Part shown: one piece after another, positions 1-63,810 of the stretch
Numbering within the stretch: the first letter of the stretch is position 1
Layout of the letters: the number at the start of each line of letters is the position of its first letter
Assembly: GCA_964016885.1 (NCBI GenBank)
Contig: OZ024743.1
Coordinates: 358,856,001-358,920,000, forward strand
From: Eledone cirrhosa
Taxonomy: Eukaryota
DNA length: 64,000 bases
Direction of reading: 5' to 3'
Program-made: the position numbers and the translations under genes
The notes under the pieces: model-generated
Database searches by the model: none
What the model saw: the letters and a program-made list of their open reading frames with translations, nothing else
What the model was told of the DNA's origin: nothing

Positions 1-1990
1 AAAGGGCAATTTTCACTCCGCCTACAATTACAATTTCGGTGTGTGCTGTTGTTCGTGCCTTGGGATGGCCGGTTGCTAAAACCCTCCTGTCATGGAATGT
101 GTTCTTCTGAGGTGTTGTTAGCAACCTCAGGTATCTCATTAGCCAATGTGCTAGGTTGTTGGTGGTTATTTACAGATTTGATATCCTTGAATCCTACTCT
201 AATTTTCCTATTATTAGTACGAGCTAGGTGGTAAGCCAGGTTAGGGGGTAGTGGAGTAAGATAATTTAATCGTATTTTCATTAAATATACTATGGTATCT
301 ACTTCCAGGCGGGAAATTCTTTTCTAGGATTAAGAAGGTTTTGGGAATGTTAGTTAAGACTTCAGAGTTGTATGGTGGGATAAAGAAAGTGTTCATTCTT
401 CTTCTATTTTTTCTATTTTTCCCCACTACAGTCCGGTTAATATTAGAGCTACAAAACCTCCCACCGCCTACAAAACCATTGCCACTATATACCTGCTGTG
501 AAACTCTCGCATTATTTTGGTCAACACGCCCTCTAAGATCACCACCATGCGAATAGTTCTAGATCTCAACACCCCGCTATTAGTGTAACCAGTAGGAGTA
601 TGTGGAGGATGTACAGCAGGGCCAGTCAGTCTGGGCCGGGCTGAATTAATCACCGTATGGGTCTTATCCAAAGTCCTATTACTATTACTATTATTATTCA
701 AAGACATATTGTGCATGAAAATACTATTATGTCCAGCATGGGTTGATTGGGAGCTAGTAGCTACGTAAAATAGTTTATTCCTATAGCCAGACTTAGCTAG
801 TGCCTCGTTATAATAATCCACATTAGAGTTGAAAATGCCCTCATTACAAAATAAACGGCTAATTCTATTAGATACTCCTTTAATAATAGCATTCAGTACT
901 GATTTAGGATGGTTGGAATTAGCATTCACATATGTTAGTCTCTCATTAGGTTTATGATAAGGTGTCAAAATCTTATTTTCTAGGTCAAGTGTTACATCTA
1001 AGAAATTCACTGTTCTATTATTCTTATCTATAGTTATACCAAGGTTAAAACCTTTAAAAAATTTACGCAGGTCCTTCTTTGTCCTATCAAGTTTATATTT
1101 TTTATGCTCAAGGGTAAGGAGGGCGTCGTCTCGGTATAACCCACCGCGAAGATATGGAAGTGCCTTATGCAGCTCATGGAGTAGGTAAAGTACGACTAAA
1201 TCAGTTACCTGGGCAGAGTCACCAGATCCCATTGTGATATCAAAGTTGTTAGTTGTGTTTTTCCGTGTCCATAATTGTTCCTCAAATAGGATTAAAGTTT
1301 TACATGCGGCTAAAACGATATCAACTTGGGATCTGGTTAGATCACTATTCTGCATGGCCATGATGAGGGCCTTATTCAAAAGAATGGGAGATATAGATGT
1401 GTAATATGAATCAATATCAAACTGGACAAACATAAGGGATTTATGGTTACTAATTCTGGAGAACCATTCAATCACTTCCTCCGTATTCCCCCACAGGTTA
1501 AGGTAAATTTTATTTCTAATTACCGGAATGACTGTCCAAAATCTTCTTACTTATGATCCCTATGTCCGACTTAGATGGGCTAATCAATCTAACAGAGGGG
1601 TTGCTAATAAAGTCTTCCTTGTGATCTTTTAGTGTAAACCTAGGTTGTTTAGGGGTGAAAGGTTGGGTATGTTTCTCTAGTTTTAATTTTCTAACAATAT
1701 CGAGCCCCTCTTTATTTCATCCAAGTTAGTGTAGGTTGTCTTTTTTATATAGTTCTTATTGAGTTCATTATAAATGAATCTGCGATACGTTATATAATCT
1801 AGGCTATAAATATTTTTAGTTTTATCTGATGGGACTAGGATAGAGTCATTATCGCCAAAATTCTTAACTATAGATTTGAGGTATCTACGGAATTTATTAG
1901 TATCGACATGATTTTTCCTGTATTTAACATTCCTTACCATAATTAAAAAATCGTTCTCAAAGTCATCTAACAAACTGATATGTGGTGGAT
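1..1990 (-). mobile_element. Penelope-like retroelement, frameshifted RT region running off the window start
   Basis: ORF 468-1475 has PLE RT motifs (QFDIDSYYTSI, FDITMGSGDSAQVTDL, GGLYRDDAL, NFLDVTLDL, YHKPN). ORFs 1683-1973 (SDKTKNIY) and 241-426 (IPPYNSEV..IKLSYSTTP) are collinear with the PLE at 54615-56199. Confidence 0.9.
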
Positions 1991-8725: not shown

Positions 8726-8785
8726 TGAGAGAGATTTATCTAAGGAAAACAAAATATAAATTTATAGAATCCTGTTCAAAGTATA

Positions 8786-9552
8786 ATGAGGATTTATCTT
8801 CGTCGTCTCATTTTTATCTCTTTACTAACACTTACAATTCCCTTGCTATGGATAAACATTCCAAAAGAATACAGTGAAAGCAATAACCGTAGCCAACATT
8901 TTCACAATTCGATTAGAAATAAGGAATTTCCTAAAAAAATAACAGTTAGAAAAATATATACACCTTCAAAAATTCGAACTTCTAATGTGATTAATAATGA
9001 TCACTGGATGAAAAGCGATCCATCTTCCCGCGTACACCAATCCAGTCTGTCCCGGAGGCGTTTAACAACGCGATATATCCGACGTAGCAACAGCAATATA
9101 TATTCGTCCATTCATGTGAATTATTCTTTAAGGGATATCCAAAATTCTATCGACATACTCTTACAAAAAAATACTCACAAACTAGGAGATGAGGAGGAGA
9201 ATATAAATAGTAATAAAAAGAAAGAAATGCAGCCTCGTGTTTTTCAAGCGATCTCCAATTCTTTACCAAAAAGCGAATGTGGTAATATGCAGGGAATTCC
9301 AGAGGGAAAATACCAAACGTGGCAGTTAATGACGAGAACTAGGGATGCTTGGGTTTTTTCGGCATTCTATGAAAATTTGACTGGACCCTTAATAAGAATA
9401 ATTGGTGCAAAAGCCCGGTGGATTTCATCGGACATACATTGTCAGTTATGGTTCAATGTAACCTCAAACAGCAACAATTCCTCCGACACAAAACTTCATC
9501 TAGTGGTTGTGTCTGCTTCTGTGAAGAATATACCAGAAGACCACAGCAGGAA
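8786..9552 (+). CDS. First coding exon of a type II membrane glycosyltransferase-like protein (GT92/DUF23-like)
   Basis: ATG, short basic N-terminus, TM helix (LIFISLLTLTIPLLWI), stem region, then WVFSAFY..IRIIG..HCQLWF typical of invertebrate GT92 N-domains. The exon ends at the splice donor AA|GTAAGT at 9552/9553. Confidence 0.75.
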
Positions 9553-9737
9553 GTAAGTGATCAATTTAATAATAATAATAATAATAATGATTTCATTTAT
9601 TAGCCACAAGGGCCGACATGTAGGGGACAATACAAAGACAGGGACAGTGGAGGTTTACAATAAGGTCGAGTAAAAGTGCACAATGGCAAGACTAATTTAA
9701 CAATGAAAATATAAAAATATAAAATAAACTATGCATA

Positions 9738-18489: not shown

Positions 18490-18747
18490 AAAGAATAGAG
18501 GTGTAACACACAAGTTATTATATATTGGTAAACGGAATAGAAATGCGCAACCGGTAAAAACTTAAAAACTTAAAACCACAACTGAATACTAACCCATACA
18601 ATCACTAATACTCTTTTATTCCTAATTAAACCATTTTTCAACTGTGAACAATTTGTCAGCATTTTCTATTCCGTTTACCAATATATATATATATATATAT
18701 ATATATACGATATTAATAAATGGAAACTATATTTATAAAACCATATT

Positions 18748-18812
18748 TATTTCATTATACATATTTCAAGGATACCAAGTTAAATTATGGTATGCCTTCA
18801 TCAGATAAAATA
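18748..18812 (-). ncRNA. Type I hammerhead ribozyme (family D, inverted copy)
   Basis: Reverse complement of the 18951-19013 motif. Confidence 0.7.
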
Positions 18813-18950
18813 CAATATATACCAGTTTTACAAATAAGCATTGACGTACCCTTTCAAAATGCGACCATTACTTTTGGAAGACATCAGGATAGTAACGGTC
18901 GCATTTTGAAAGGGTACGTCAATGTTTATTTATAAAACTGGTATATATTG

Positions 18951-19013
18951 TATTTTATCTGATGAAGGCATACCATAATTTAATGGTATCCTTGAAATAT
19001 GTATAATGAAATA
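18951..19013 (+). ncRNA. Type I hammerhead ribozyme (family D)
   Basis: tattttat-CTGATGA-aggcatacca..tggtatcctt-GAAAT atgt ATA-atgaaata; 8-bp stem I. Confidence 0.75.
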
Positions 19014-19164
19014 AATATTGTTTTATAAATATAGTTTCCATTTATTAATATTGTATATCTACTCCAAATACTTGTCGAGTGCTTTATATCAGTTATAAAA
19101 ATATTTGCTTGTTGTATCCCAACAATTTAAATAGAACTTTTGCATATATATATATATATTTATA

Positions 19165-36110: not shown

Positions 36111-36831
36111 TTTAATTAAATTAAAAGCAACTCACTGAAACTGTTTGGTCCTATCAAACACACCACTTGTGGTCTCTCTAAAATCTGTCAGATGAGAATG
36201 ATCCCTAGAAATAGAAATCGAGGATGCCTCAAAAGTAATGGAGAGACCATATTCTAAAACAGTCTGAATGTCAATCATTGCAATGACAATGGATAGGAAT
36301 AAATGGAGGAAATATATTCATATGTAAGTGAAAACAACTATTAGAATAAAAATTTAATGTGATCAATGGATTGATAATATTTATGTGCTGAGGAGAAGAA
36401 AACATTAGTTTATTCACTAAATAATATATTTAGTAAAGTTTCGGATTTAGATCTCTTCAACAAAACACACCCTCATGTGTACTTGTAAACGATTATCTTA
36501 TGAATAATTTGGAATTACAGATAAGGCTATGGTGCAGTCCCGATTACCCGCTCTGATTGTATACAGATATAACTTTATCGTACACTTCGGCTCTTCTTAA
36601 TATATATATTAATTAATTACCAACACCAGCGCTAATTATATGCAAATTAGCACGTCTATTTCAGAATATTACTAAGAGCGAATGGGTATATAAGCCCATC
36701 AAATACACGTTTCCTTGTGGTTGTTTGAATGCCTTCTCATGAGGGCCCAATTAGGTCTGAAAATCGATTAAAAGTGTTTATTATTTTTTTCAATTTAATG
36801 GGAAGTTCGTATTTTCTGCTATGTATAGAGG

Positions 36832-36875
<44 letters not shown>

Positions 36876-39035: not shown

Positions 39036-39079
39036 TGTGCTAGGGCAAGAAATAAAATTCTAATTTTCTTTGTAATATT

Positions 39080-39297
39080 TGGCAAGGCCAACCGTAACTC
39101 GCTCGGTATGCAAATGAGGCTACTCAGCCGATGTGTACTTAAGAAAATACCATATATTTTCAACCATTGAAGGGTAATGACCCAGAAACATGTTGATTGT
39201 TCCTCAATGCAAGTGTTGAACAAACATGGGACGATCGGTCACCGGCACGGTACAGCTTCAAATCGGGCCGTTTGTTTACAAACGAATCGAACATTAT
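39080..39297 (+). mobile_element. Diverged solo monomer related to the 433-bp retrozyme-like unit
   Basis: aactcgctcggtATGCAAATgaggctactcagccg, degenerate HHR (gggt aatg accc aGAAAC at GTT), then gtgttgaacaaa and gtttgtttacaaac. Confidence 0.65.
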
Positions 39298-39480
39298 GGG
39301 CAGTATCGGTAGAGGGTCGGACGCCATGCTTTGCAGCATAGAGTTGCGTCCCTTTATGATCTGAATTCAAATCCCACTGAGGTTATCTTTGCCTTTCATC
39401 CTTACACAGTCGATAAAATAAAGTACCAGTAATACACTGGGATAATTGCTGGCCTTCTACCAAAAGTAGAAACAATTATT
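39298..39480 (+). mobile_element. Nin-domain tRNA-SINE
   Basis: Matches 22158-22350. Confidence 0.85.
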
Positions 39481-39514: not shown

Positions 39515-42300
39515 TACGTGGAGGGAGTATGTGGACGCTGGGTTTTTACTCCCAAAATGCATGGTGGTACACTTGTCCACATCTAGCTTGAGTTGCCAGT
39601 CTGTGATCCATTGTTGCATTGTGTCCAGGTCAGACTGCAAGCAAGATCTACAGTGTTCAGGATCTGTCCTTTTTATCTCAAGGTACAGCTTGATGTCATC
39701 TGCGTATTTCAGTACTGTGGCATTCTTTAAGTTGGCATCTATGTAATTAATATATGCCACAAACAAAAGGGGGCCAAGAACAGATCCCTGTGGTACACCA
39801 GATGACATCTAATATGGTGAGGAATGCTGTCCCAGAACCGTGACTACCTCTCTTCGACTGAGAATGAAGGACTTCAACCAGTTAAAAAGATCATCCTTCA
39901 CACCCATTGCAGAGAGTTTTGCCATAAGCATTTTGTGTGGCACATAATTGAAAGCTTTCGCAAAGTTAAGATAAACAACATCCACCCATGAGCCGCCATC
40001 AGTGATCCAGGTGATGTCTTCAAGAAACTCGATAAGTTGATCACAGCAGCTGGAGTTAGGGATAAATCCAAATTGCAAGGGCCGGATAAGACTGTGATAG
40101 TTCCAGAAGTTCCAAAGTGTTTCTCTGTCACAGGATTCTATCAGTTTGGCAATGCAACTAGTAAGACTGACTGGACGATAGTTGACAGGTGATGTGCGGT
40201 CACCCTTTTTGAACAGAGGAATGACACTGGCAGTTTTCCACTGATCTGGAGTAGCACCGTTGTTCAGACAGAATTGGATGAAGCGTGATAGCTGGTGCAG
40301 AAGGAGGTACCCACCTCGTTTAAGAAGCAGGTACGTAACACTATCAAGACCAGGAGAGGCATGGTTGCGTTTATTTTTAAGGTGACGTCGCAGCATTGCA
40401 GGTGTAAATTCGATGGTTGTAATAGAATCCGGTGTCATAGGTGGTGGAGACGGTACACTCTGGTCTTCAATAATGAAAATGCCTGCATAGCATTCAGCAA
40501 TGAGCTCTGCGCATTCCTTGGGGTCTTCAGTAACCTGGCTTGTGTGGGGATTGTGAAGAGGACCAACTGGAGAATGGGGCCTCTGCTTTGAGTGAACATA
40601 CTTCCAGAACACCTTACTGTCAGGGCTGGTTGCTATGCGCTGCTCAAATTGAAGCACTGCCTTTTTTGTCACCTGTTTGAGGTGGTTGGATGATTTATTT
40701 CGCCTCTTCCTATTGATGTCTGATTTATGCAGTTTGTACTCACGTTCAGGATTACGATGTTCTTTTCTGGCAAGACGGACTGCTGCAGTCTCCCAAATTG
40801 CACTTTTGGGATGTTTTTTCTGCTTACGTGGCATCGATGCTGCTCAGGATGTCCTGGAGTACAGTGTTGACATCTCCAGAGTCGTAGAACTCAAGCCAGT
40901 TTGGACCTTGCAACTTGGTGCAGTACAGTTCCAGTCTGCTTTATTCAGTCAAAGTGAGCAGTTTGGAGATGGTTGTGGTTTTTGTTACTGCCCATGAGGG
41001 ATAGATTGGCAATGATCATAGCATGATCAGAGTCACCTAAAGGTTCCTCAGTAACACTAATGACCGTTTCAGGAGTAGTGGTGAAGAGTAGGTCCAAAGT
41101 GTTGTCACCTTTTGTTGGGGAGATGACTACTTGGGACCAATTCGAGTCCAGCACAAGGAAGTCATTTGCACTTGGTGGCCAACAAAAGGTTTCCCAGTCA
41201 ACCTCAGGGTGATTGAAGTCCCCTGCAATAAAAGTGGCTGTTTTCCTGGCAGGAGCTCTGAGGATATCACACAGTTGAGTGTCCTGATGGTAATTTGGGG
41301 GACGGTAAACGACTCCAAGTAGCAGTGTTGACATGGTCATAGATCATCCAAAGACTTGCGCGAAGGGTGCTCTACGCCTTGGCCAACCAGGTCCGAAACC
41401 CAGGCTAATTAGGCTGTTTTTTCGAACTCAACTGAGGCACGTTCATACCTTGTAGCCTCTGATAAAGCTAGGCGTGAAAGTCGGATTGCTTTCCGAACAC
41501 GCCCTGATCTTCCACCTGATGTCCGCCCAAAGTTGCGTGCTGCAGCTTCCTTAAACCGCAGCTCAGCAGAACAAGAAAGCTTCAGCCTACGTGATGATGG
41601 GCAGATATGGAAGTTTATTAAGGCTGGTGAACCATGGAAAAGAGATACCAGCTGGTCTGAAAACACTGTACCCACAACAACTAACAATAAAAAAAACTGA
41701 AAAAACTCTGGGAAACTAAATCAGAACAACCTGCCATCCCCTGCACATAATCATATACTGGAATCAAGGTACAAATTGTTGTCCTTGAATGCACGCAGTC
41801 TATGCAATAAGATTCATATTGCAAATGCCTGAAGATCAACCATGTCTTCTGGTGCACCAATGGCAATCACCTCGTGGTTTGCAGATTCAGTGGCATTCTC
41901 AATGCGTCTAGATTCAACATGAGGTACGCGGAGATTTTTTAACAAGGTATTCCGGTAAGATCCCTCATTGTGAGGTTCTACACGAACGCTTGGTTTTATT
42001 CCCGCTATTTCTCGGCTTAAAGCGGAAATCATTTGCCGTATTTCCTCAAACTCCGTATTGACGGTCGATTTTTGTTGTTGTTCTCCTTCAACAGGCATGG
42101 TAGGGGAAGACACAGTCGTCGGTTGTTGTTGTTGAAAAGTAACGGGGGAGGAAGACATGGGTTGCTGTTGTTGATGATGTCCTTCAACGGGGGTAGTAGC
42201 AGAAGCTACGGTCGCTGGTTTTTGGTTTTTGGTTTTTGATGTTGTTCAGGAACAATGGTAGAGGAAGACACGATCTTCGATCCAAGTGTCTGCAAGTACA
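39515..42300 (-). mobile_element. Decayed CR1/L2-group LINE (ORF1, APE, RT) with an internal inversion
   Basis: APE motifs VYRPPN, GDFNHP, GDSDH; RT motifs NYRPVSLTS, YLNFAKAF, GVPQGSVLGP, KYADD; ORF1 RRM motifs. Confidence 0.9.
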
Positions 42301-51945: not shown

Positions 51946-52142
51946 GAAAAGTATAGAAATTATTGTGCGCAAGAAGCCAACAGTATTCCATGACCCTCCG
52001 AAAGTATAACAATATATACATATAATATATATATATTATATATATATTAACTCACGCGATATGAAAATTAGGCTGCTCAGCCGTTAATATGCATAAGGAA
52101 AGTATATACTTTCAGACGTTCAACCATCTGGCAGGCAGGTAT

Positions 52143-52185
52143 ACGTTGCTGACGATAGCTAATAAGCTTGAAACTAGTACAGCGT
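52143..52185 (+). ncRNA. Type I hammerhead ribozyme, array unit 1
   Basis: Intact core, 6-bp stem I, palindromic ACUAGU stem III. Confidence 0.85.
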
Positions 52186-52575
52186 TCCTTTGTCAGTGTT
52201 GAACAAATGAGCAACGATGGTTGCTAGACACTGTACGGCTTAATTCGGGATGTTTGTTTACAAACACACCGAGCATTATAATAAATGTTCGGTGAATCCA
52301 TACGTACATATATATATGTGTGCATGTATGTATATATATATATATACATACTACTGTACGTATGTATACATATATGTATGTACGTACACATACTTATATT
52401 TAAGTAACAGCCGTACTAAGAGTGAGAAATGAAATTTCGTTTCATTTTTTCCGTTTATCGTTTTCAGTACCCCGGCCGATTAACTCACTCGATATGCAAA
52501 TTAGGCTGCTCAGCCGTTAATATGCGTAAGGAAAGTATATACTTTCAGACGTTCAACCATCTGGCAGGAAGGTAT

Positions 52576-52618
52576 ACGTTGCTGACGATAACTAATAAGC
52601 TTGAAACTAGTACAGCGT
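52576..52618 (+). ncRNA. Type I hammerhead ribozyme, array unit 2
   Basis: As unit 1, with a stem II mismatch (taact). Confidence 0.8.
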
Positions 52619-53006
52619 TCCTTTGTCAGTGTTGAACAAATGAGCAACGATGGTTGCTAGACACTGTACGTCTTAATTCGGGATGTTTGTTTACAAACAC
52701 ACCGAGCATTATAATAAATGTTCGGTGAATCCATACGTACATATATATATGTGTGCATGTATGTATATATATATATACATACTACTGTACGTCTGTATAC
52801 ATATATGTATGTACGTATACATACTTATATTTAAGTAACAGCCGTACTAAGAGTGAGAAATGAAATTTCGTTTCACTTTTTCCGTTTATTGTTTTCGGTA
52901 TCCCGGCCGATTAACTCACTCGATATGCAAATTAGGCTGCTCAGCCGTTAATATGCATAAGGAAAGTATATACTTTCAGACGTTCAACCATCTGGCAGGC
53001 AGGTAT

Positions 53007-53049
53007 ACGTTGCTGACGATAGCTAATAAGCTTGAAACTAGTACAGCGT
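53007..53049 (+). ncRNA. Type I hammerhead ribozyme, array unit 3
   Basis: As unit 1. Confidence 0.85.
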
Positions 53050-53441
53050 TCCTTTGTCAGTGTTGAACAAATGAGCAACGATGGTTGCTGGACACTGTAC
53101 GGCTTAATTCGCGACGTTTGTTTACAAACACACCGAGCATTATAAAAAATGTTCGGTGAATCCATACGTACATATATATATATGTCTGCATGTATGTATA
53201 TATATATATATACATACTACTGTACGTCTGTATACATATATGTATGTACGTATACATACTTATATTTAAGTAACAGCCGTACTAAGAATGAGAAATGAAA
53301 TTTCGTTTCATTTTTTCCGTTTATCGTTTTCGGTACCCCGGCCGATTAACTCACTCGATATGCAAATTAGGCTGCTCAGCCGTTAATATGCGTAAGGAAA
53401 GTATATACTTTCAGACGTTCAACCATCTGGCAGGAAGGTAT

Positions 53442-53484
53442 ACGTTGCTGACGATAACTAATAAGCTTGAAACTAGTACAGCGT
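53442..53484 (+). ncRNA. Type I hammerhead ribozyme, array unit 4
   Basis: As unit 2. Confidence 0.8.
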
Positions 53485-53872
53485 TCCTTTGTCAGTGTTG
53501 AACAAATGAGCAACGATGGTTGCTAGACACTGTACGTCTTAATTCGGGATGTTTGTTTACAAACACACCGAGCATTATAATAAATGTTCGGTGAATCCAT
53601 ACGTACATATATATATGTGTGCATGTATGTATATATATATATACATACTACTGTACGTCTGTATACATATATGTATGTACGTATACATACTTATATTTAA
53701 GTAACAGCCGTACTAAGAGTGAGAAATGAAATTTCGTTTCATTTTTTCCGTTTATTGTTTTCGGTATCCCGGCCGATTAACTCACTCGATATGCAAATTA
53801 GGCTGCTCAGCCGTTAATATGCATAAGGAAAGTATATACTTTCAGACGTTCAACCATCTGGCAGGCAGGTAT

Positions 53873-53915
53873 ACGTTGCTGACGATAGCTAATAAGCTTG
53901 AAACTAGTACAACGT
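53873..53915 (+). ncRNA. Type I hammerhead ribozyme, array unit 5
   Basis: Stem I is fully Watson-Crick (acgttg/caacgt). Confidence 0.85.
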
Positions 53916-54241
53916 TCCTTTGTCAGTGTTGAACAAATGAGCAACGATGGTTGCTGGACACTGTACGGCTTAATTCGCGACGTTTGTTTACAAACACACC
54001 GAGCATTATAAAAAATGTTCGGTGAATCCATACGTACATATATATATATGTGTGCATGTATGTATATATATATATATACATACTACTGTACGTCTGTATA
54101 CATATATGTATGTACGTATACATACTTATATTTAAGTAACAGCCGTACTAAGAGTGAGAAATGAAATTTCGTTTCATTTTTTTTCCGTTTTTTATATATA
54201 TATATATTATATATATATATTATATATATATATTATATATA

Positions 54242-54614: not shown

Positions 54615-56199
54615 TGATCTCAACATCCTGGACCGGACCGAACCTCTGGACCCTATTTCTCCCCACTTTACCCTGAAGGATCACAAATCCAATTTTCCGA
54701 ACAACCCCTCCATTCGGCTTATTAACCCTACGAAGTCCGATTTAGGTAGACTTAGTAAAACGATTCTTGATAGAATTATACCTGAAATTAGAAGTTTGGC
54801 CCCTCTTGCACTGTCGAACAATTCTTTCGCGCTGATTGATTGGTTCAACGGCATATGTAACAAGGAACATTGCCGTTTTATCCAATTCGACATCAACAAT
54901 TACTACTCCTCCATCACTTTACTACTTCTCCTTAGAGCTATTAATTTCGATAAAACACTCACAGTGGTTAAGGATTTCGAAGTTGATGTCATCCTCAATG
55001 CCCGAAAGTCGGTGATTAATTTCGACGACTCTATTTGGATTAAAAAATCCAACAGTACCCTATTCGACGTGAGTATGGGCGCCAGTGATTCTGCGGAGGT
55101 TACTGATCTTATCGGCCTTTTCCTTCTTTTCTCTATCAAGGACGAATTCCCCAACGCGGGCGGTGGTTTGTACCGTGACGATGGTCTTTTGACCATGACT
55201 AAGTGCGGACCTCGTGCTTGCGACAGGTTCAGAAAAGAACTCACAGCCTTCTTTAAAGGCTTCAACCTTTCTATACAGGTTGAGGCCAATCTCTCGGTCG
55301 TTAATTACCTCGACGTTACCCTCAATTTATTGAATGGGTTGTATTACCCGTATGGAAAGCCGAATGATACGCTTAATTACATAAGTAAGCATTCCATCCA
55401 TCCTGCCAGCATAACCAAGAACCTGGTAAGAAACGTTTCGTTGAGGCTTTCCCGTCTTTCCACCAACGAGCGTATTTTCAACGACAATTCCACTTATTAC
55501 AATGAAGCTCTTGCTCGAAGTGGATTTGTCGATAAGGTAGCATATACAGAGTACGAAAATAGACCTAGAAGAAATAGATCCCGTCGCATTTGTTGGTATA
55601 ACCCACCATATAATATGGAGGTGGCCACACCATTAGCTAAGATCTTTCTTTCCCTTATTACGAAGCATTTTCCCCCTACACATAAGTATAGTAAAATTTT
55701 TAATAGAAATACTATTAAAATTTCTTACTCTACGACTCCTAACCTTGCACATAACATCACAGCTTCAAATTTAGCTAAACTACCTGGCCGTAGGAACACG
55801 TGCAACCCTGTAGTTAGTACTAAGTGTAATTGTAGCAATCGGGTTGATTGCCTCCTATCCGGGAAATGCCTCTCTAGTAACATTGTCTACAAATGTAAGG
55901 TTGTAACACCCACGTCCCGTAGGGCCTACATAGGGTTAACCGCCAATAGATTCAAGCAGCGTCTTTACATGCATACCCATTCTTTTCGTTACCCTCTAAG
56001 AAGGAATATGACGTCACTTTCAGCTTATATCTGGAGTCTAAAAGACAACCACACCCAATATAAGTTACACTGGGAGATCCTAGCTAGGGTTAGATCGTAT
56101 AACGGAAATAAAAGATCATGTGACCTCTGCGCCGTTGAGGCCCTGAAAATACTCTACGCCACAGACCACATCTTAAACAAAAAATCTGAGGCAATTTAG
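54615..56199 (+). CDS. PLE reverse transcriptase + Cys-rich linker + GIY-YIG endonuclease (N-terminally truncated)
   Basis: TLKDHK..RLINPTKSDLG, QFDINNYYSSI, GGLYRDDGL, NYLDVTL, WYNPPY, KCNC..CLLSGKC..IVYKC..YIGLT..RF..H, CDLCAVE. The true frame starts after the TA tract. Confidence 0.9.
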
Positions 56200-57192
56200 G
56201 CTTGTAAACATAAATTGCACAAAACTTTCCTGTATTACAGCCCCACGTTATACCCTAACGGATAGTACGATTTATACGTGGATATTTTACGTCTTGATGT
56301 GGGAGCTAAGTATATGTTTTGTTTATACCATTACTTATTTGCATAGGCAAGTATATATTACCCGTATGTTTTGTGAAGGTACGTATACCTTCTCGTACGT
56401 ATATTTGATTGTTTATATTATGGCGTATAATTTTATATATTTTGGTACATATGGTTTGGCTATGTGTATACGGGAGTTTTGCGTCTGTGTGAGTATGCAG
56501 GTTCGTACGTATGTAGGGTGTGTGTATATGTGTACTTCATGTTTTAGTTGACTTACGTCTCCGAACATTCGTGTATTTACATGTAGGTATGTGTGTGCGT
56601 TTGTTATATACGTATTTATTTATTTATATACGTTTATATAATTATTTATTTATTTGTAAACACGCATACACACACACATATTTATATTGCGTGGTTTTGT
56701 ATACCGATGGTAAGTGTCCTGCGTATGCTTGTGTATGTACGTATTTGTTTGCGTGTATGCATTTATTTATTTCTATTACTTCTGTATTGTATTTATTTAC
56801 TTTGTTCTTAACTCTGTAGCAGAGATTCATTTGGTCTCCTGGTTAGAATTTTAGTCTACGACTTCTGCTATACCATTTACGTCGTTTTGTCTTTGCGTGC
56901 TATTGTTCTCTACATATGACGTATTATCTTCGTTTTTTTCGTTCATTGCCAGAGAACGTCTCTATGAACCACCTAAGAGAACATTAGTCTACGACCTCTT
57001 TTATACCATAAACGTGGTTCTGTCTTTGCGCGTAATTGTTTTTCACTGCTCCTATTAATTACGTATTATATTCGTTTTTTTCCGTTCTTTGCCAGCGAAC
57101 ATTTCCACGAACCAAAGTATCGTCTTCCTGTCTTCCTCCGGTTGCAACGTTTTTTGAAATATCCACTTCTGCGTTTACAGATTGACTTTGTT

Positions 57193-57243
57193 AGTTTCAG
57201 AAGATCCCGTTAAGGGTGAAAGCAGCGATTCTTTGCTTAAACT
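57193..57243 (+). ncRNA. Hammerhead-like motif with a variant core CAGAAGA (family B)
   Basis: agttt-CAGAAGA-t ccc gttaa ggg t-GAAAGCAG cgattct TTGCTT-aaact; the same core is at ~6091. Confidence 0.55.
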
Positions 57244-57428
57244 TTAATCTGTTATTTTAATAAATATTTGCTCTACGGTTCTTATATATTTGATATATAT
57301 TTATCCTTATCGAGCCCTCTTTGGATTTTAGTCTTCAAATTTATTATTATTACTATATATAAATATATATATATAAATATATATATAAATATATATATAA
57401 TTATATATATATATAAATATATATTATT

Positions 57429-57592: not shown

Positions 57593-57768
57593 AATAATAT
57601 ATGAATACACACACGTATACATATGTATATGTAACAAGTCTTTCACTGGTTGCTTTACTGTGAGCACCCAGCTATTCTGTATGTAAACACACAGACAAAC
57701 CGGTTTTTAGAGTCATACTGGTTTTTGAGGGAACACCTTCCCTCTATTCTCCAGAAAGCCAGACAAGG

Positions 57769-57813
57769 AATATTGAACTAGTTTCGTTGTTGTTACAACT
57801 CATCAGCAATATT
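57769..57813 (-). ncRNA. Type I hammerhead ribozyme (inverted copy)
   Basis: Exact reverse complement of 57962-58006. Confidence 0.85.
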
Positions 57814-57961
57814 TACCTATCTACCGGCCCTTCTGGAGAATTGTAAAAGCACATATCGTTATATGCTTTTTCTATGAAAATTAGTAGTGGGCAGACTAAT
57901 TTGCATAGAGTGTGAGTACGCACCGGTTCAGCGGAGACGATAAAAACAAATGACGAAACGA

Positions 57962-58006
57962 AATATTGCTGATGAGTTGTAACAACAACGAAACTAGTTC
58001 AATATT
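57962..58006 (+). ncRNA. Type I hammerhead ribozyme
   Basis: aatattg-CTGATGA-gttgt aaca acaac-GAAAC ta GTT-caatatt; perfect 7-bp stem I. Confidence 0.9.
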
Positions 58007-58430
58007 CCTTGTCTGGCTTTCTGGAGAATAGAGGGAAGGTGTTCCCTCAAAAACCAGTATGACTCTAAAAACCGATTTGTCTGTGTGTTTACATACAGAA
58101 TAGCTGGGTGCTCACAGTAAAGCAACCAGTGAAAGACTTGTTACATATACATATGTATACGTGTGTGTATTCATATACACACTAGTATTTCAGTATGCAT
58201 ATGTAGATGTAATTTTTTTAAACTTAATTGTTTAAGCGTCAGTCATACAAAAGTGAGTTACAAACGAAACGAAATTTAATTTCGTTTCGTCATTTGTTTT
58301 TATCGTCTCCGCTGAACCGGTGCGTACTCACACTCTATGCAAATTAGTCTGCCCACTACTAATTTTCATAGAAAAAAGCATATAACGATATGTCCTTTTA
58401 CAATTCTCCAGAAGGGCCGGTAGATAGGTA

Positions 58431-58475
58431 AATATTGCTGATGAGTTGTAACAACAACGAAACTAGTTCAATATT
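58431..58475 (+). ncRNA. Type I hammerhead ribozyme
   Basis: Identical to 57962-58006. Confidence 0.9.
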
Positions 58476-58800
58476 CCTTGTCTGGCTTTCTGGAGAATAG
58501 AGGGAAGGTGTTCCCTCAAAAACCAGTATGACTCTAAAAACCGGTTTGTCTGTGTGTTTACATACAGAATAGCTGGGTGCTCACAGTAAAGCAACCAGTG
58601 AAAGACTTGTTACATATACATATGTATACGTGTGTGTATTCATATACACACTAGTATTTCAGTATGCATATGTAGATGTAATTTTTTTTAACTTAATTGT
58701 ATAAATATATATATATATATATAAATATATATATAAATATATATATATATAAAAATATATATATAATTATATATATATATATATAAATAAATATATATAT

Positions 58801-59301: not shown

Positions 59302-59522
59302 AATAAATATATATATAAATATATAGTTAAAAGAATAGAGGTGTAACACACAAGTTATTATATATTGGTAAACGGAATAAAAAATGCTGACAAATTGTTC
59401 ACAGTTGAAAAATGGTTTAATTAGGAATAAAAGAGTATTAGTGATTGTATGGGTCAGTATTCAGTAATGGTTTCATTCTTTAAGGGTATGTCAATAGTAA
59501 TTTATAAAACTGCTCTATATTA

Positions 59523-59587
59523 TATTTTATCTGATGAAAGCACACCATAATTTAACTTGGTGTCCTTGAAATATGTATAATGAAATA
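59523..59587 (+). ncRNA. Type I hammerhead ribozyme (family D)
   Basis: Homologous to 18951-19013; stem II varies as cacca/tggtg versus tacca/tggta. Confidence 0.75.
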
Positions 59588-59729
59588 AATATGGGTTTAT
59601 AAATATAGTTTCCATTTGTTAATATCGTATATTTACTCCAATTATTTGTTGAGTGCTTTATATCAGTTATAAAAATATTTGCTTGTTGTATCCCAACAAT
59701 TTAAATATAATTTTTACATATAAATATAT

Positions 59730-62700
59730 ACAATGGACAAACACAACAAAAACAACAACAACAACAGCCACAACAACAGCCACGACAACAACAACAGCAA
59801 GAAAGCCAGGAGCAACCACTACTGAATTCAAGCATAATCGCTGAATTACTAAATGACAGTATCACTCAGCCACTCACTCAGCCATCATTATCGCCATCAC
59901 CATCACCACCGTCACCATCTCCTGCAACACCTACACCTTCTGCCACACCAACTGCTAGTAATGGACCACTGCTCTCTCTCCCACCACAGTTGTCATCATC
60001 ATCATCACCACCAATGCTTTCTTCCCCCACATCACCACCATAGCCATGCCATAGTCAAAAGAACTATAAAAAAAAAGTTCTATGGAGCTGTATGCACCTC
60101 CCACTACACATACTAGAAACCCCAAATATGCCGCTACTCACTACGCCAGAGGCTATGCACACGTAGCGACTGTATACACCCATTTACCCATTTACCAGGT
60201 ACTAGGCGCCCTAACACTGCCAGCCATCACCAAAGCCCGCTGCCTGCACGTATAGGTCGCAGTCCCAAAATCTGCCATCATTCCCAACGTGAGAGGCTAT
60301 GTCTGCTGACTGACTGTCCCTTCACTCATCTTCCTGGGACACAACGCACGAACAGAAAAGGGGCTTCATGCCAACCCACAAACCACAATAAAGCCACCCC
60401 CTGCTGCGGTAATGTTGCTCCAGTCTCCTCACAAAGACATGATTACAACGACAAAAGTAATGCTGCTCCAGTCTTGTCACAAAGACACGATCACAACAAC
60501 AACAAATACAACAACAAAAATAACGCTGCTCCAGTCTTTTCACAAAGACACAATTACAACAAATACAACAACAACAACAAAAGAGGGAACTGCAACCCTA
60601 TCCAATGTTGTAACCACAAATCCAATCAAAAACTGCTCCCTGAACAAAAAGAAAATCTTCCTTTTTTAGCCATGAACCTGGCAAAAGAGATAGAGAAAAA
60701 CATTTTAGCCATCACCCAACACCAACCTTGCTGTCAATAACACACAATCACAAAACAAGCCCCCTGCAACAGTCAAAACCAGCCACCAGCCTAGCCTCCA
60801 CATTCTTACTCAATACACAATGTATCAGCCCATCCATCAATGCACAGAAATGGAAGATCCAATTCATTGAGGATTGGGTTGGTAACCATCCATTTCACAT
60901 CCCCTTCTTCATTCTTACTGAGACCCACCTTGACAACTCCCACTTGGAGGCCGAAGTAAGAGTGAGAAATTTCACAACCATCCGTGCGGATCGTGTTGGC
61001 AGAAGGAAGGGTGGAACTGCCATTTTCCTGCATGATTCCTTTACGGCAGATGGCAACACAACATTCTCTAATGGATACTGTGAATCAGTCACTGTGCACA
61101 ATAAAGCCAATGACCTGACATTAGTTGGGCTCTATAGGCCGCCACAAACACCCATTATCTGTTTCAAAGAATGCCTCAACAGTATTAAATGCTTTATTAA
61201 ACAGTGCCATTCTAGCAACATACTTTTGATGGGAGACTTTAATCTACCCTGTGTCGATTGGTCTACATGTAGTTTGAAACCAGGCTCCACAGCCTCAACC
61301 ACTGACAAAGAGGCTGTCGAGTCACTTCTTGACTCCATGAATGAGTTTTTCTTGTCTCAACTTGTCCTTGCACCAACGAGGCATCAGAAGAACATTCTGG
61401 ATTTAGTGTTTAGTAACCACACTAACACTATACATAATATTACAGTGGAAAAAACCCTTCTCTCAGGCCATGACATGGTTATTTGTAACCTGAGATTCCA
61501 CCAGCCGAAAGCTAATCCCAGGGTCCTCTCTCCAGCCCACCCATTTGATAACATGGATCTCTACAATGCCAACTGGGATGCAATTATGAACGAACTATCA
61601 CATGTCGACTGGTCTTTTACACACGTACACACTTCCACCAACATCAAAACATCTTGGCAGATCTTTGTAGACACTGTCACAAATATATGTACAAAACACA
61701 CCCCTACCAAAACCTGTGAAAAAAACCAAGTGCAGTATCCCCCAAAACAGAAAAACAATTATCAGAAAAATAAAAAGAACAAACAAAAAAATTAACACAC
61801 TAAAATACTGCCAACAGCAACACACACATTCAATGACTATCACCCTGCTTGAGTCAAACAAATATAACCTCCAGCAATGCATGATGACCATCATCAATAA
61901 CCAAAGAATAGCTGAAGAGAGGTGGGCCATTGAGAAAATCAAACTCAACCCCAAAGTGTCATTCGCTAAAAACACAAGGTCACCGTCTCCACTGTTGCCC
62001 CCCCTCCCTATTTGATGAACATGGCACACTCCAGGACAATGCCAAAACCATGGGCGAGATACTGCAGAAACAATACTGCTCTGTTTTCAGCAACCCTGAT
62101 ATGGCCGATCTGGGCCGTATCAGTGATATTAACCCCCAACACACTATATCAGACATAACGTTTGGCGCGCGCCCCTGATGTCTTAGCGGCAATAAACGAA
62201 ATTAAACACAATTCAGCAGTAGGCCCCGACAGGTTCCCTGCTTGTGTCCTGAAGGTGTGTCGACACCAACTTGCAACTCCTCTTGCTAATCTGTGGAGGA
62301 ACTCACTGGCTATATTCCTGAAAACTTTCTGTCCCAGTCCGTTGTCCCAGTCTTCAAAAAGAGAAATAAGTCCCTTGCAGTGAACTACCGTCCGATCTCA
62401 CTCACATCTCATATTATCAAGGTATTTGAGAGGGTGGTGAGATCACGAATAACCCACTTTCTTGAAAGCAACGGCCTGCTGAACTCCAACCAACATGGGT
62501 TCCGTAATGGCAGGGACTGCCTAACGCAGCTCCTGCATCACTTTGACGATGTTTTGAGATCCTTGGGAGAGGGCTCCAACACTGATGTCATCTACGTTGA
62601 TTTCAGCAAGGCCTTCGACAGGGTTGATCATAAGATTCTACTGAAAAGACTATCCAATGTTGGTGTCTCTGGAAGGTTACTACAGTGGATCAAATGTTTC

Positions 62701-63810
62701 CTGACAGGCAGAACCTAGCATGTTGTAGTCGAAGGAGTAAAATCAAGCCCCGTAGTGGCGTCTCACAAGGCACTGTGTTGGGCCCACTTCTTTTCATCAT
62801 CTACATTAATGACATTACTGACATCATCAAACACAGTAACATCAGAATCTTCGCAGATGATTCCAAGCTCCAAAGGGTCATCAATGAGGTGGGTGACCGG
62901 ACTTGCCTTCAGTCAGACCTACTGGCTGTTATCCAATGAGCAGAGATGAATAATATGCTGTTGAATGAGGATAAATTTGAACTAATCCACTTTGGAAAAA
63001 AGGATGCTCTGAAACTACCATACTCTCTTCCTTCGGGTGAAACTCTAGTAGCTTCCAATAACATCAGAGACCTGAGAGTAATTGTGGACAACAATATAAG
63101 CTGGGCCACTCATATAAACAGCAAAGTTGATATGGCCCGCAGAATGTGTTCCTGGATTCTCAGAACTTTCCAATCTAGAGATATCCACACTGTTGTCCTA
63201 CTCTTCTCCACATTTGCCCGACCCCACCTTGAATACTGTTGTCCACTGTGGTCACTCCACACGAAACAAAGTATCATGAAAGTTGAAGCACCCCAAAGGT
63301 CAATTACAAAAAAGATAGTTGGCATGACAGGCCTTGACTATTGGGGTCGATTAGAAAAGCTCAAACTTTATTCTCTTCAACGTCGCTGTGAGCGCTACAT
63401 TATCTGTATGATGTGGAAAATATTCCATCAGCTTAGCCCAAATGATGTTGGCATCACCTTTAGTGTAAACCCAAGGCTTGGGCCCCGTGCTATCCGCCCA
63501 CGACAAAAATCCCACTCGCATCACATAACAACAATACGGCACAATTATTTCACCTCAATTGGCCCTGCAATCTTTAACATTACACCAAAACACATCAAAG
63601 CAGAAACAGACCCCATTAAGTTCAAGAAGTCTTTGGATAAATTCAAGAAATCCCGGATAAGCCTCCTACACCCGGATATGCCTCCGTAAACAATAACTCT
63701 CTGCTCGAGTGGACCAAACACTGATTTGTAAGACTTCGACAGGTGGTGCTATTAAGTTAGACATGGCCTGGGCCAATACTGGCTGAAACCTATCAAAGTT
63801 ATCAAAGTTA
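59730..63810 (+). mobile_element. Near full-length decayed CR1/L2-group LINE: ORF1 remnant with CCCH fingers, APE-RT ORF2, short-repeat tail
   Basis: LTETHL, RADR..KGGT, YRPP, MGDFN, GHD; NYRPISLTS, DFSKAFD, QGTVLGP, FADD, RPHLEY; tail tatcaaagt x2 runs into (TA)n. Confidence 0.9.

Follow-up and report, generated by a model that had tools for sequence, protein, structure and literature searches.

The window, a 64,000-nt stretch of Eledone cirrhosa contig OZ024743.1, contains an array of 4.9 retrozyme units of about 433 bp (family A, 52046..54182, plus strand) that is flanked by (TA)n tracts and whose hammerhead cores are intact in all five units by a type I scan. The displayed unit carries, from 5' to 3' on the plus strand, a 12-nt octamer block (52493..52504) identical to the type-3 element of host RNA genes; a TCAGC resembling a PSE core at +16 (52510..52514), 26 nt 5' of the TATA and with a PWM score near zero; a TATA-like TATATA (52536..52541) 42 nt from the octamer start; a predicted transcription start (52566..52570), placed from host spacing at TATA+30 or octamer+76; and a minimal type I hammerhead (52576..52618) with a predicted cut after 52612, whose stem III consists of one pair and a palindromic CUAG loop. 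A hairpin around TGTTTACA (52685..52698, plus strand) follows, and then a hairpin with the first T-run (T5) past the predicted start (52861..52881, plus strand), flanked on both sides by insertion 3' ends. Further family A blocks lie at 52924-52935, 53359-53370 and 53790-53801, and unit 1 has a one-base variant at 52060-52071 (octamer at 52061). A genome search with the A3 body gave no match.

The octamer ATGCAAAT was located at 52494, 52925, 53360, 53791, 58337, 57906 (minus strand), 39108 and 36640. It forms the core of the 12-nt block TATGCAAAT(T/G)AG, which lies 80-105 nt 5' of a minimal type I hammerhead in four diverged families, A to D, the distance from octamer to hammerhead core being 88 nt in family A and 100-101 nt in family B. 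Exact octamers in the window number 12 against 6.2 expected, a count reached in 3 of 100 shuffles, and 8 of the 12 fall inside hammerhead repeats. The family B (469 bp) insertion has an inverted arm (57600..58700) and contains hammerheads at 57806 (minus), 57969 (plus) and 58438 (plus), with Rfam HH9 matches under the gathering score. Its block lies at 58336..58347 (plus) with TATAA at 58381, 44 nt on, and its inverted block at 57896-57907 (minus); an inversion joint just upstream deprives the hammerhead at 57969 of an octamer. Family C is represented by a solo copy (39040..39300, plus; block 39107-39118) and family D by an old copy (36530..36835, plus; block 36639-36650, TATA 36687) with a degenerate core at 36736-36769 and a T8 at 36784-36791, both on the plus strand. 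Other family D copies are about 80% identical to the copy at 36640.

The initial annotation had reported the octamer ahead of the hammerheads of the 433-bp and 469-bp units, mutated in unit 1, and we found it at exactly those positions. It had also placed the octamer before a hammerhead in the solo copy at 39108, where the octamer is present and the hammerhead downstream is broken by a deletion of about 31 nt that includes the 5' part of the ribozyme; its relatives are intact, with 173 exact cores genome-wide. The octamer at 36640 does precede a degenerate hammerhead, whose core starts at 36736 and not at 36733 as first given. Rfam miRNA matches in the window were discarded as microsatellite noise.

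These repeats share the tested features of retrozymes, namely a type I core with stems I-III and short non-coding units, tandem and dispersed, in high copy number; they also co-occur with Penelope-like elements and have a Penelope-like insertion structure. The metazoan non-LTR retrozymes of Cervera and de la Pena 2020 are described as the same kind of short non-coding repeat, with type I hammerheads and Penelope-like company, and the axolotl ribozyme HHR_Amex1 is given there with the same weak stem III and palindromic tetraloop (PMC7229834); by that account, a one-pair stem III with a palindromic loop belongs to amphibian ribozymes that act as dimers. By all features compared, the repeats appear to be non-LTR retrozymes, with self-cleavage and circular RNA predicted.

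A Penelope-like element adjoins the array (54616..57330, plus strand) and is not part of the repeat. Its RT and GIY-YIG motifs were recognised by eye, a Pfam search of its ORF giving no match, and it belongs to a young, abundant family (150 scored matches at 96-98% protein identity) with 713-aa frames in several copies and a long 3' repeat. Its hammerhead-like motif at 57198 differs from the repeat hammerheads and is not preceded by the block; the only octamer-like word in the family is antisense (56334-56345), about 860 nt from that motif. Inheritance of the promoter from this neighbouring family is therefore not supported. Further Penelope-like or LINE-like RT/endonuclease fragments lie at 468-1550 (minus), 39809-41343 (minus) and 60644-63689, and a 262-aa open frame at 8768-9556 resembles the first exon of a membrane-anchored host protein.

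Insertions of the repeats have inverted arms and a tail on one arm only, matching Penelope-like insertions. Penelope-like pseudo-LTRs are described with inverted 5' arms, a tail at one end, (TA)n targets and hammerheads (bioRxiv 10.1101/2021.04.23.441226); the repeats have the same arms, tail, (TA)n targets and hammerheads, but no ORF. Family 54616..57330 is a candidate for the mobilising partner. The 3' ends fall at two sites in 45/48 family B insertions and in 66/105 of family A, where 21 more run into the next unit and 18 end elsewhere; the two sites lie 35-110 nt upstream of the next block, and the ends mostly abut (TA)n. We rejected the idea that these ends mark Pol III terminators, as one of the two family A sites has no T-run and the arms of inverted insertions end at two different sites, like Penelope tails.

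The repeats are numerous in this AT-rich 3.0-Gb genome. There are 36,658 matches to the A/B core pattern (control 1), and 26,288 of these cores have the exact octamer 80-101 nt upstream (control 0). Between families A to D, identity is 44-64% (one natural copy each), and the longest run invariant in all four is the 9-nt TATGCAAAT; with one copy per family and 28% of columns identical, column shuffling gives this run P=0.0014. The D copy counted here was itself retrieved by a motif-dependent search; in the same alignment, a D copy selected by similarity also carries TATGCAAAT. The only 8-mers common to all four families are the octamer and TGTTTACA, the latter within a hairpin of changing stems in each (52685-52698 in A, 58555-58562 in B, and in C and D). 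TGTTTACA may be an RNA signal or a forkhead-type DNA site.

Within families the octamer is not specially conserved: windows equally or better conserved make up 36/116, 54/129, 15/115 and 72/133, using the 66, 52, 48 and 7 sequences that reach far enough upstream. Its description as one of the best-conserved blocks thus holds between families and fails among copies of one family. Neutral decay across copies, named at the outset as grounds for refutation, does occur, alongside a positive between-family comparison; we regard the decay as uninformative because inserted, mostly dead copies are expected to decay neutrally. A tandem array whose units bear a mutated octamer was found (locus L176), and hammerhead family E (59462-59720 in the window, at least 40 copies at 97% identity) spreads without the block, which the hammerhead-bearing repeats at 18680-19150 and 38444 also lack. 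The mutated array and family E indicate that some hammerhead repeats and some insertions can do without the block. None of the upstream regions listed for 12 family E loci contained the block, and a second promoter type there is unsupported.

The counterpart of the block lies in host RNA genes. Host type-3 genes carry the motif TATG(C/G)(A/T)AAT(T/G)AG; the ATG of the motif falls at -76 to -79, and a TATA lies 46-48 nt downstream. We examined 12 U6 loci in three classes, the best U6atac gene, RNase MRP and two tRNA-Sec genes, and the block with a TATA near -30 was found in 7/7 distinct type-3 promoters (U6 x3, U6atac, MRP, tRNA-Sec x2). Even the T/G alternation at block position 10 has a parallel, with G in host U6a and MRP and G in family C. 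At the -77 position the block was absent from 14 further U6, 5 U6atac and 3 tRNA-Sec matches, and these 22 are likely retrocopy-like pseudogenes. It was likewise absent there from 14 U1, 14 U2, 8 U5 and 2 U11 loci, from the single RNase P gene and from 8 7SL loci. Host U1, U2, U5 and RNase P genes have YCAGT near -56 in place of the block (U11 has no YCAGT), with AATTA 32-34 nt before the YCAGT core in 15/17 host promoters and a TATA-like word, near -30, 23-27 nt after it in 15/17, by a loose TATA definition in AT-rich DNA. Since the block is present in 7/7 type-3 genes and absent from U1, U2 and U5, we read it in the repeats as a signature of host type-3 Pol III promoters; a match to U1/U2/U5 promoters was rejected for the same absence. 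The internal snRNA-type promoter first suspected here has good sequence support, in that block and TATA match host snRNA-class promoters, with the class being Pol III type-3; of the U1/U2/U6 promoters proposed for comparison, the U6 type matches, as a proximal element at -77, and U1 and U2 lack the block.

Genome-wide, the block followed after 34-36 nt by GTATAT gave 230 matches against 2 for a reversed control, and among the 100 matches listed most are family D and its subfamilies, with the MRP gene included. Loci L308 and L309, an inverted pair, have block and TATA at host spacing with no downstream ribozyme or recognised RNA gene. A distal element lies near -265 in 5/7 host type-3 promoters, and one near -260 is common to many host Pol II snRNA and type-3 promoters. 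The single RNase P RNA gene has upstream elements of U1/U2 type, not the U6-type block, yet a terminal T-run, and is possibly transcribed by Pol II or by both polymerases. Of 10 genes retrieved from a tandem U6 cluster, 5 are separated from their TATA by a SINE-like insert of about 190 nt, which displaces the promoter. Like the retrozymes, several of the U6 and U6atac pseudogenes are found at (TA)n tracts, which suggests that Pol III RNAs are copied by the same machinery.

A TATA-like word follows the block in all four families; the distance is 47 nt in D, 42 nt in A, 43 nt in C and 43-44 nt in B. The family D spacing falls within the host range of 46-48, and families A-C, at 42-45, lie 3-5 nt short of it. 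The best Pol II-core match of host type-3 promoters is at +14 to +17 in 5/7 (p=0.002), about 31 nt before TATA, and a C-rich core at +15/16 is common to the repeats and the host type-3 genes. Families A and C have TCAGC at that position, 26-27 nt before TATA, which is the Pol II distance; it is a weak match to YCAGT, with Pol II-core PWM scores of -0.8 to +0.8 in A and C versus 1.7-16.2 in host genes, and in family B the best Pol II-core match is not at +16. AATTA 32-34 nt before the core was absent from the repeats, with a one-mismatch word at 32 in A only, and the host distal element near -265 was absent from the A and B units scanned. In insects, small differences in the proximal element are described as deciding the choice of polymerase, and the promoters as evolving fast (PMC1761439).

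As the best explanation of this arrangement, we consider it probable that block and TATA form a built-in snRNA-type promoter starting just before the ribozyme, with multimers made by Pol II and re-insertion of Penelope type. The repeats would likely transcribe themselves rather than rely on neighbouring genes. With the A of the octamer numbered u1, the predicted start (TATA+30) falls at u73-78 and coincides, in a fold prediction, with the 5' base of the extended stem I of the ribozyme. We gathered 323 hammerhead copies regardless of upstream sequence, counting separately any tandem neighbours that differed anywhere. Of these copies, 164 run past u-100; the others stop at an inversion joint (78), an internal rearrangement (6) or a genomic 5' junction (75, one of which was dropped for its low score). 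In u66-80, a window chosen after the A/B data had been seen, genomic 5' ends exceed inversion joints in A+B (5/19 vs 4/57, p=0.038) and in A-C (11/63 vs 5/75, Fisher p=0.044), with p=0.075 for all four families (11/74 vs 5/78) and p=0.34 for C alone, a weak hint of a start site. Separately, 10/63 non-inverted 5' ends in A, B and C lie exactly at the block start (u-2 to +1), which microhomology to the (TA)n target probably explains, and these leave the promoter intact at the edge of the insert.

The T-runs of the units bear on which polymerase is used. Family A has T5-6 and T4, family B T7, T5 and two T4, and family D T6-10 immediately past the ribozyme, precisely where its stem I ends. In A-C a T4-free stretch of 270-325 nt past the predicted start ends at a T-run (p 0.05-0.18 per family, none significant by itself). 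Both features, along with the specificity of the block for Pol III type-3 genes in the host and the exact host spacing of D, would suit a purely Pol III promoter, under which every unit would act as a small type-3 gene with its first T-run as terminator, and multimers would come from rare Pol III read-through or from read-through by host Pol II; the short RNAs might assist by pairing in trans with dimer-dependent minimal ribozymes. We consider this unlikely. The termination efficiencies given for human Pol III are 75/95/99% at T4/T5/T6 (PMC6023835), and at such rates only about 1% of family A transcripts, and a far smaller share in B and D, would reach the next ribozyme; moreover, an RNA without the promoter would give weak selection to keep it, and A-C depart from Pol III spacing.

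Since Pol III would be halted at the T-runs, the multimers are probably Pol II products. Human type-3 promoters are described as also recruiting Pol II, the compact H1 most strongly (PMC6023835); Pol II is on that account more likely to supply the propagating RNA, and may be favoured by the shorter spacing of the younger families. Within the explanation of a built-in promoter, we therefore regard Pol II as the probable source of this RNA, rare Pol III read-through as a lesser possibility and any other source as less likely again.

In RNA folds the block is predicted to form the 5' arm of a hairpin as well (z=-5.05 in B, z=-2.14 in A), and strong hairpins that include it are predicted for A, B and C; in host promoters, pairing at the block is weak. 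The block could be an RNA-level element of the circular RNA, such as a hairpin arm or a protein or RT site, or else a relic of insertion behind a U6-type promoter, with transcription by read-through only. The second invariant 8-mer also lies in a hairpin, the distal element is missing, and metazoan retrozymes are described as seeming to lack promoters (PMC7761336), all in line with such an origin, which we nevertheless think quite improbable. The partner arm differs among A, A2, B and C and lies upstream of the block in D, while the block itself is unchanged; a fixed block with a changing partner arm points to constraint on the DNA with compensation in the RNA. Over 12 nt the invariant arm is identical to the host DNA motif, a TATA-like word stands 42-47 nt on in four families, and a relic would not survive 45-55% divergence. 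Immunoglobulin heavy-chain promoters have a POU factor site about 40 nt before TATA, and an mRNA-type Oct-plus-TATA Pol II promoter, resembling U6 only through a shared POU protein, would agree with the spacing of 42-44 in A-C, the weak PSE-like core and the likeness of the block to what we take to be extended POU consensus sites, but it is very hard to reconcile with the exact type-3 spacing of D and the C-rich core at +15/16 shared with host type-3 genes.

Under the built-in promoter, transcription would start directly 5' of the ribozyme from block and TATA, and Pol II would read through the T-runs to give multimers, which would undergo cleavage and circularisation before Penelope-type machinery re-inserts them. 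A monomer spanning from cleavage site to cleavage site would contain the promoter of the following unit. Reverse transcription from the fixed sites just upstream of the block, for at least one turn round the circle, would then restore promoter, ribozyme and body in order with one full turn. Circular permutation would in this way solve the loss of a gene-external promoter on retroposition. The promoter should be used by Pol III as well, chiefly in family D, giving short RNAs of about 80 nt in D and 270-320 nt in A-C that could not propagate it. Contigs of sequencing runs contain the repeats and are uninformative on starts. Two 49-nt contigs spanning almost precisely the fragment from predicted start to cut were dismissed as assembly artefacts, their ends being due to variant positions 30 nt away.

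A less likely reading is that the lineage captured a gene-external U6-type promoter of the host and kept it by circular permutation, and that the younger and most successful families shortened the distance from core to TATA (31 to 26 nt, half a helical turn) and took a Pol II-type core. If true, this would be a natural switch from Pol III to Pol II, with transcription through T-tracts and more than 26,000 snRNA-type promoters scattered genome-wide. The promoter of the repeats has the host's own geometry, and for that reason convergence or long co-evolution with the host seems likelier than sharing with amphibians.

Built-in promoters have precedents among hammerhead repeats. The promoter of the schistosome satellite is gene-internal and tRNA-like, and the octamer and PSE of newt satellite 2 were reportedly detailed by Coats et al. 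in 1994. Both satellites are described as hammerhead repeats with internal promoters, of Pol II snRNA type in the tandem newt satellite 2 and of Pol III type in the schistosome satellite (PMC2220036). The newt satellite thus resembles our repeats in its tandem hammerheads and internal snRNA-type promoter, and is set apart, by that description, in that the block here is of Pol III type-3 with a proximal element at -77; its precedent keeps a built-in promoter from being categorically new. Plant LTR retrozymes are described with an LTR promoter (PMC9695139, PMC12029980). Like them and the schistosome satellite, the repeats have a probable promoter of their own, but one of gene-external type carried through circular permutation. 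With type-3 Pol III promoters, especially human H1, as characterised in PMC6023835, they share a gene-external layout, an element at the PSE position with a TATA, a downstream T-run and, probably, Pol II recruitment; they differ from H1-like promoters in that theirs lies within a mobile repeat, is 3-5 nt shorter than the host's in A-C and is without the host distal element in A and B. The published literature searched contained no gene-external type-3 promoter captured in host geometry, though the supplement of PMC7229834 and subscription papers, outside that search, may list the repeats; nor did it contain a description of such snRNA promoter elements for this kind of genome.

Metazoan retrozymes are characterised as seemingly promoter-less, and read-through transcription was assumed for lack of promoters, in a 2020 review (PMC7761336), whereas the repeats described here carry a recognisable host snRNA-class promoter sequence. 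The newt and schistosome satellites have been isolated exceptions to that assumption, and the present repeats add a named host promoter class and a predicted start. The comparison also defines the Pol III type-3 and Pol II snRNA promoter elements of the host, useful for the expression of small RNAs and guide RNAs. The spacing series (47 vs 42-44) and the predicted start make retrozyme transcription directly testable, and the proposed mechanism, if correct, would illustrate a way for a retroelement to retain an upstream promoter.
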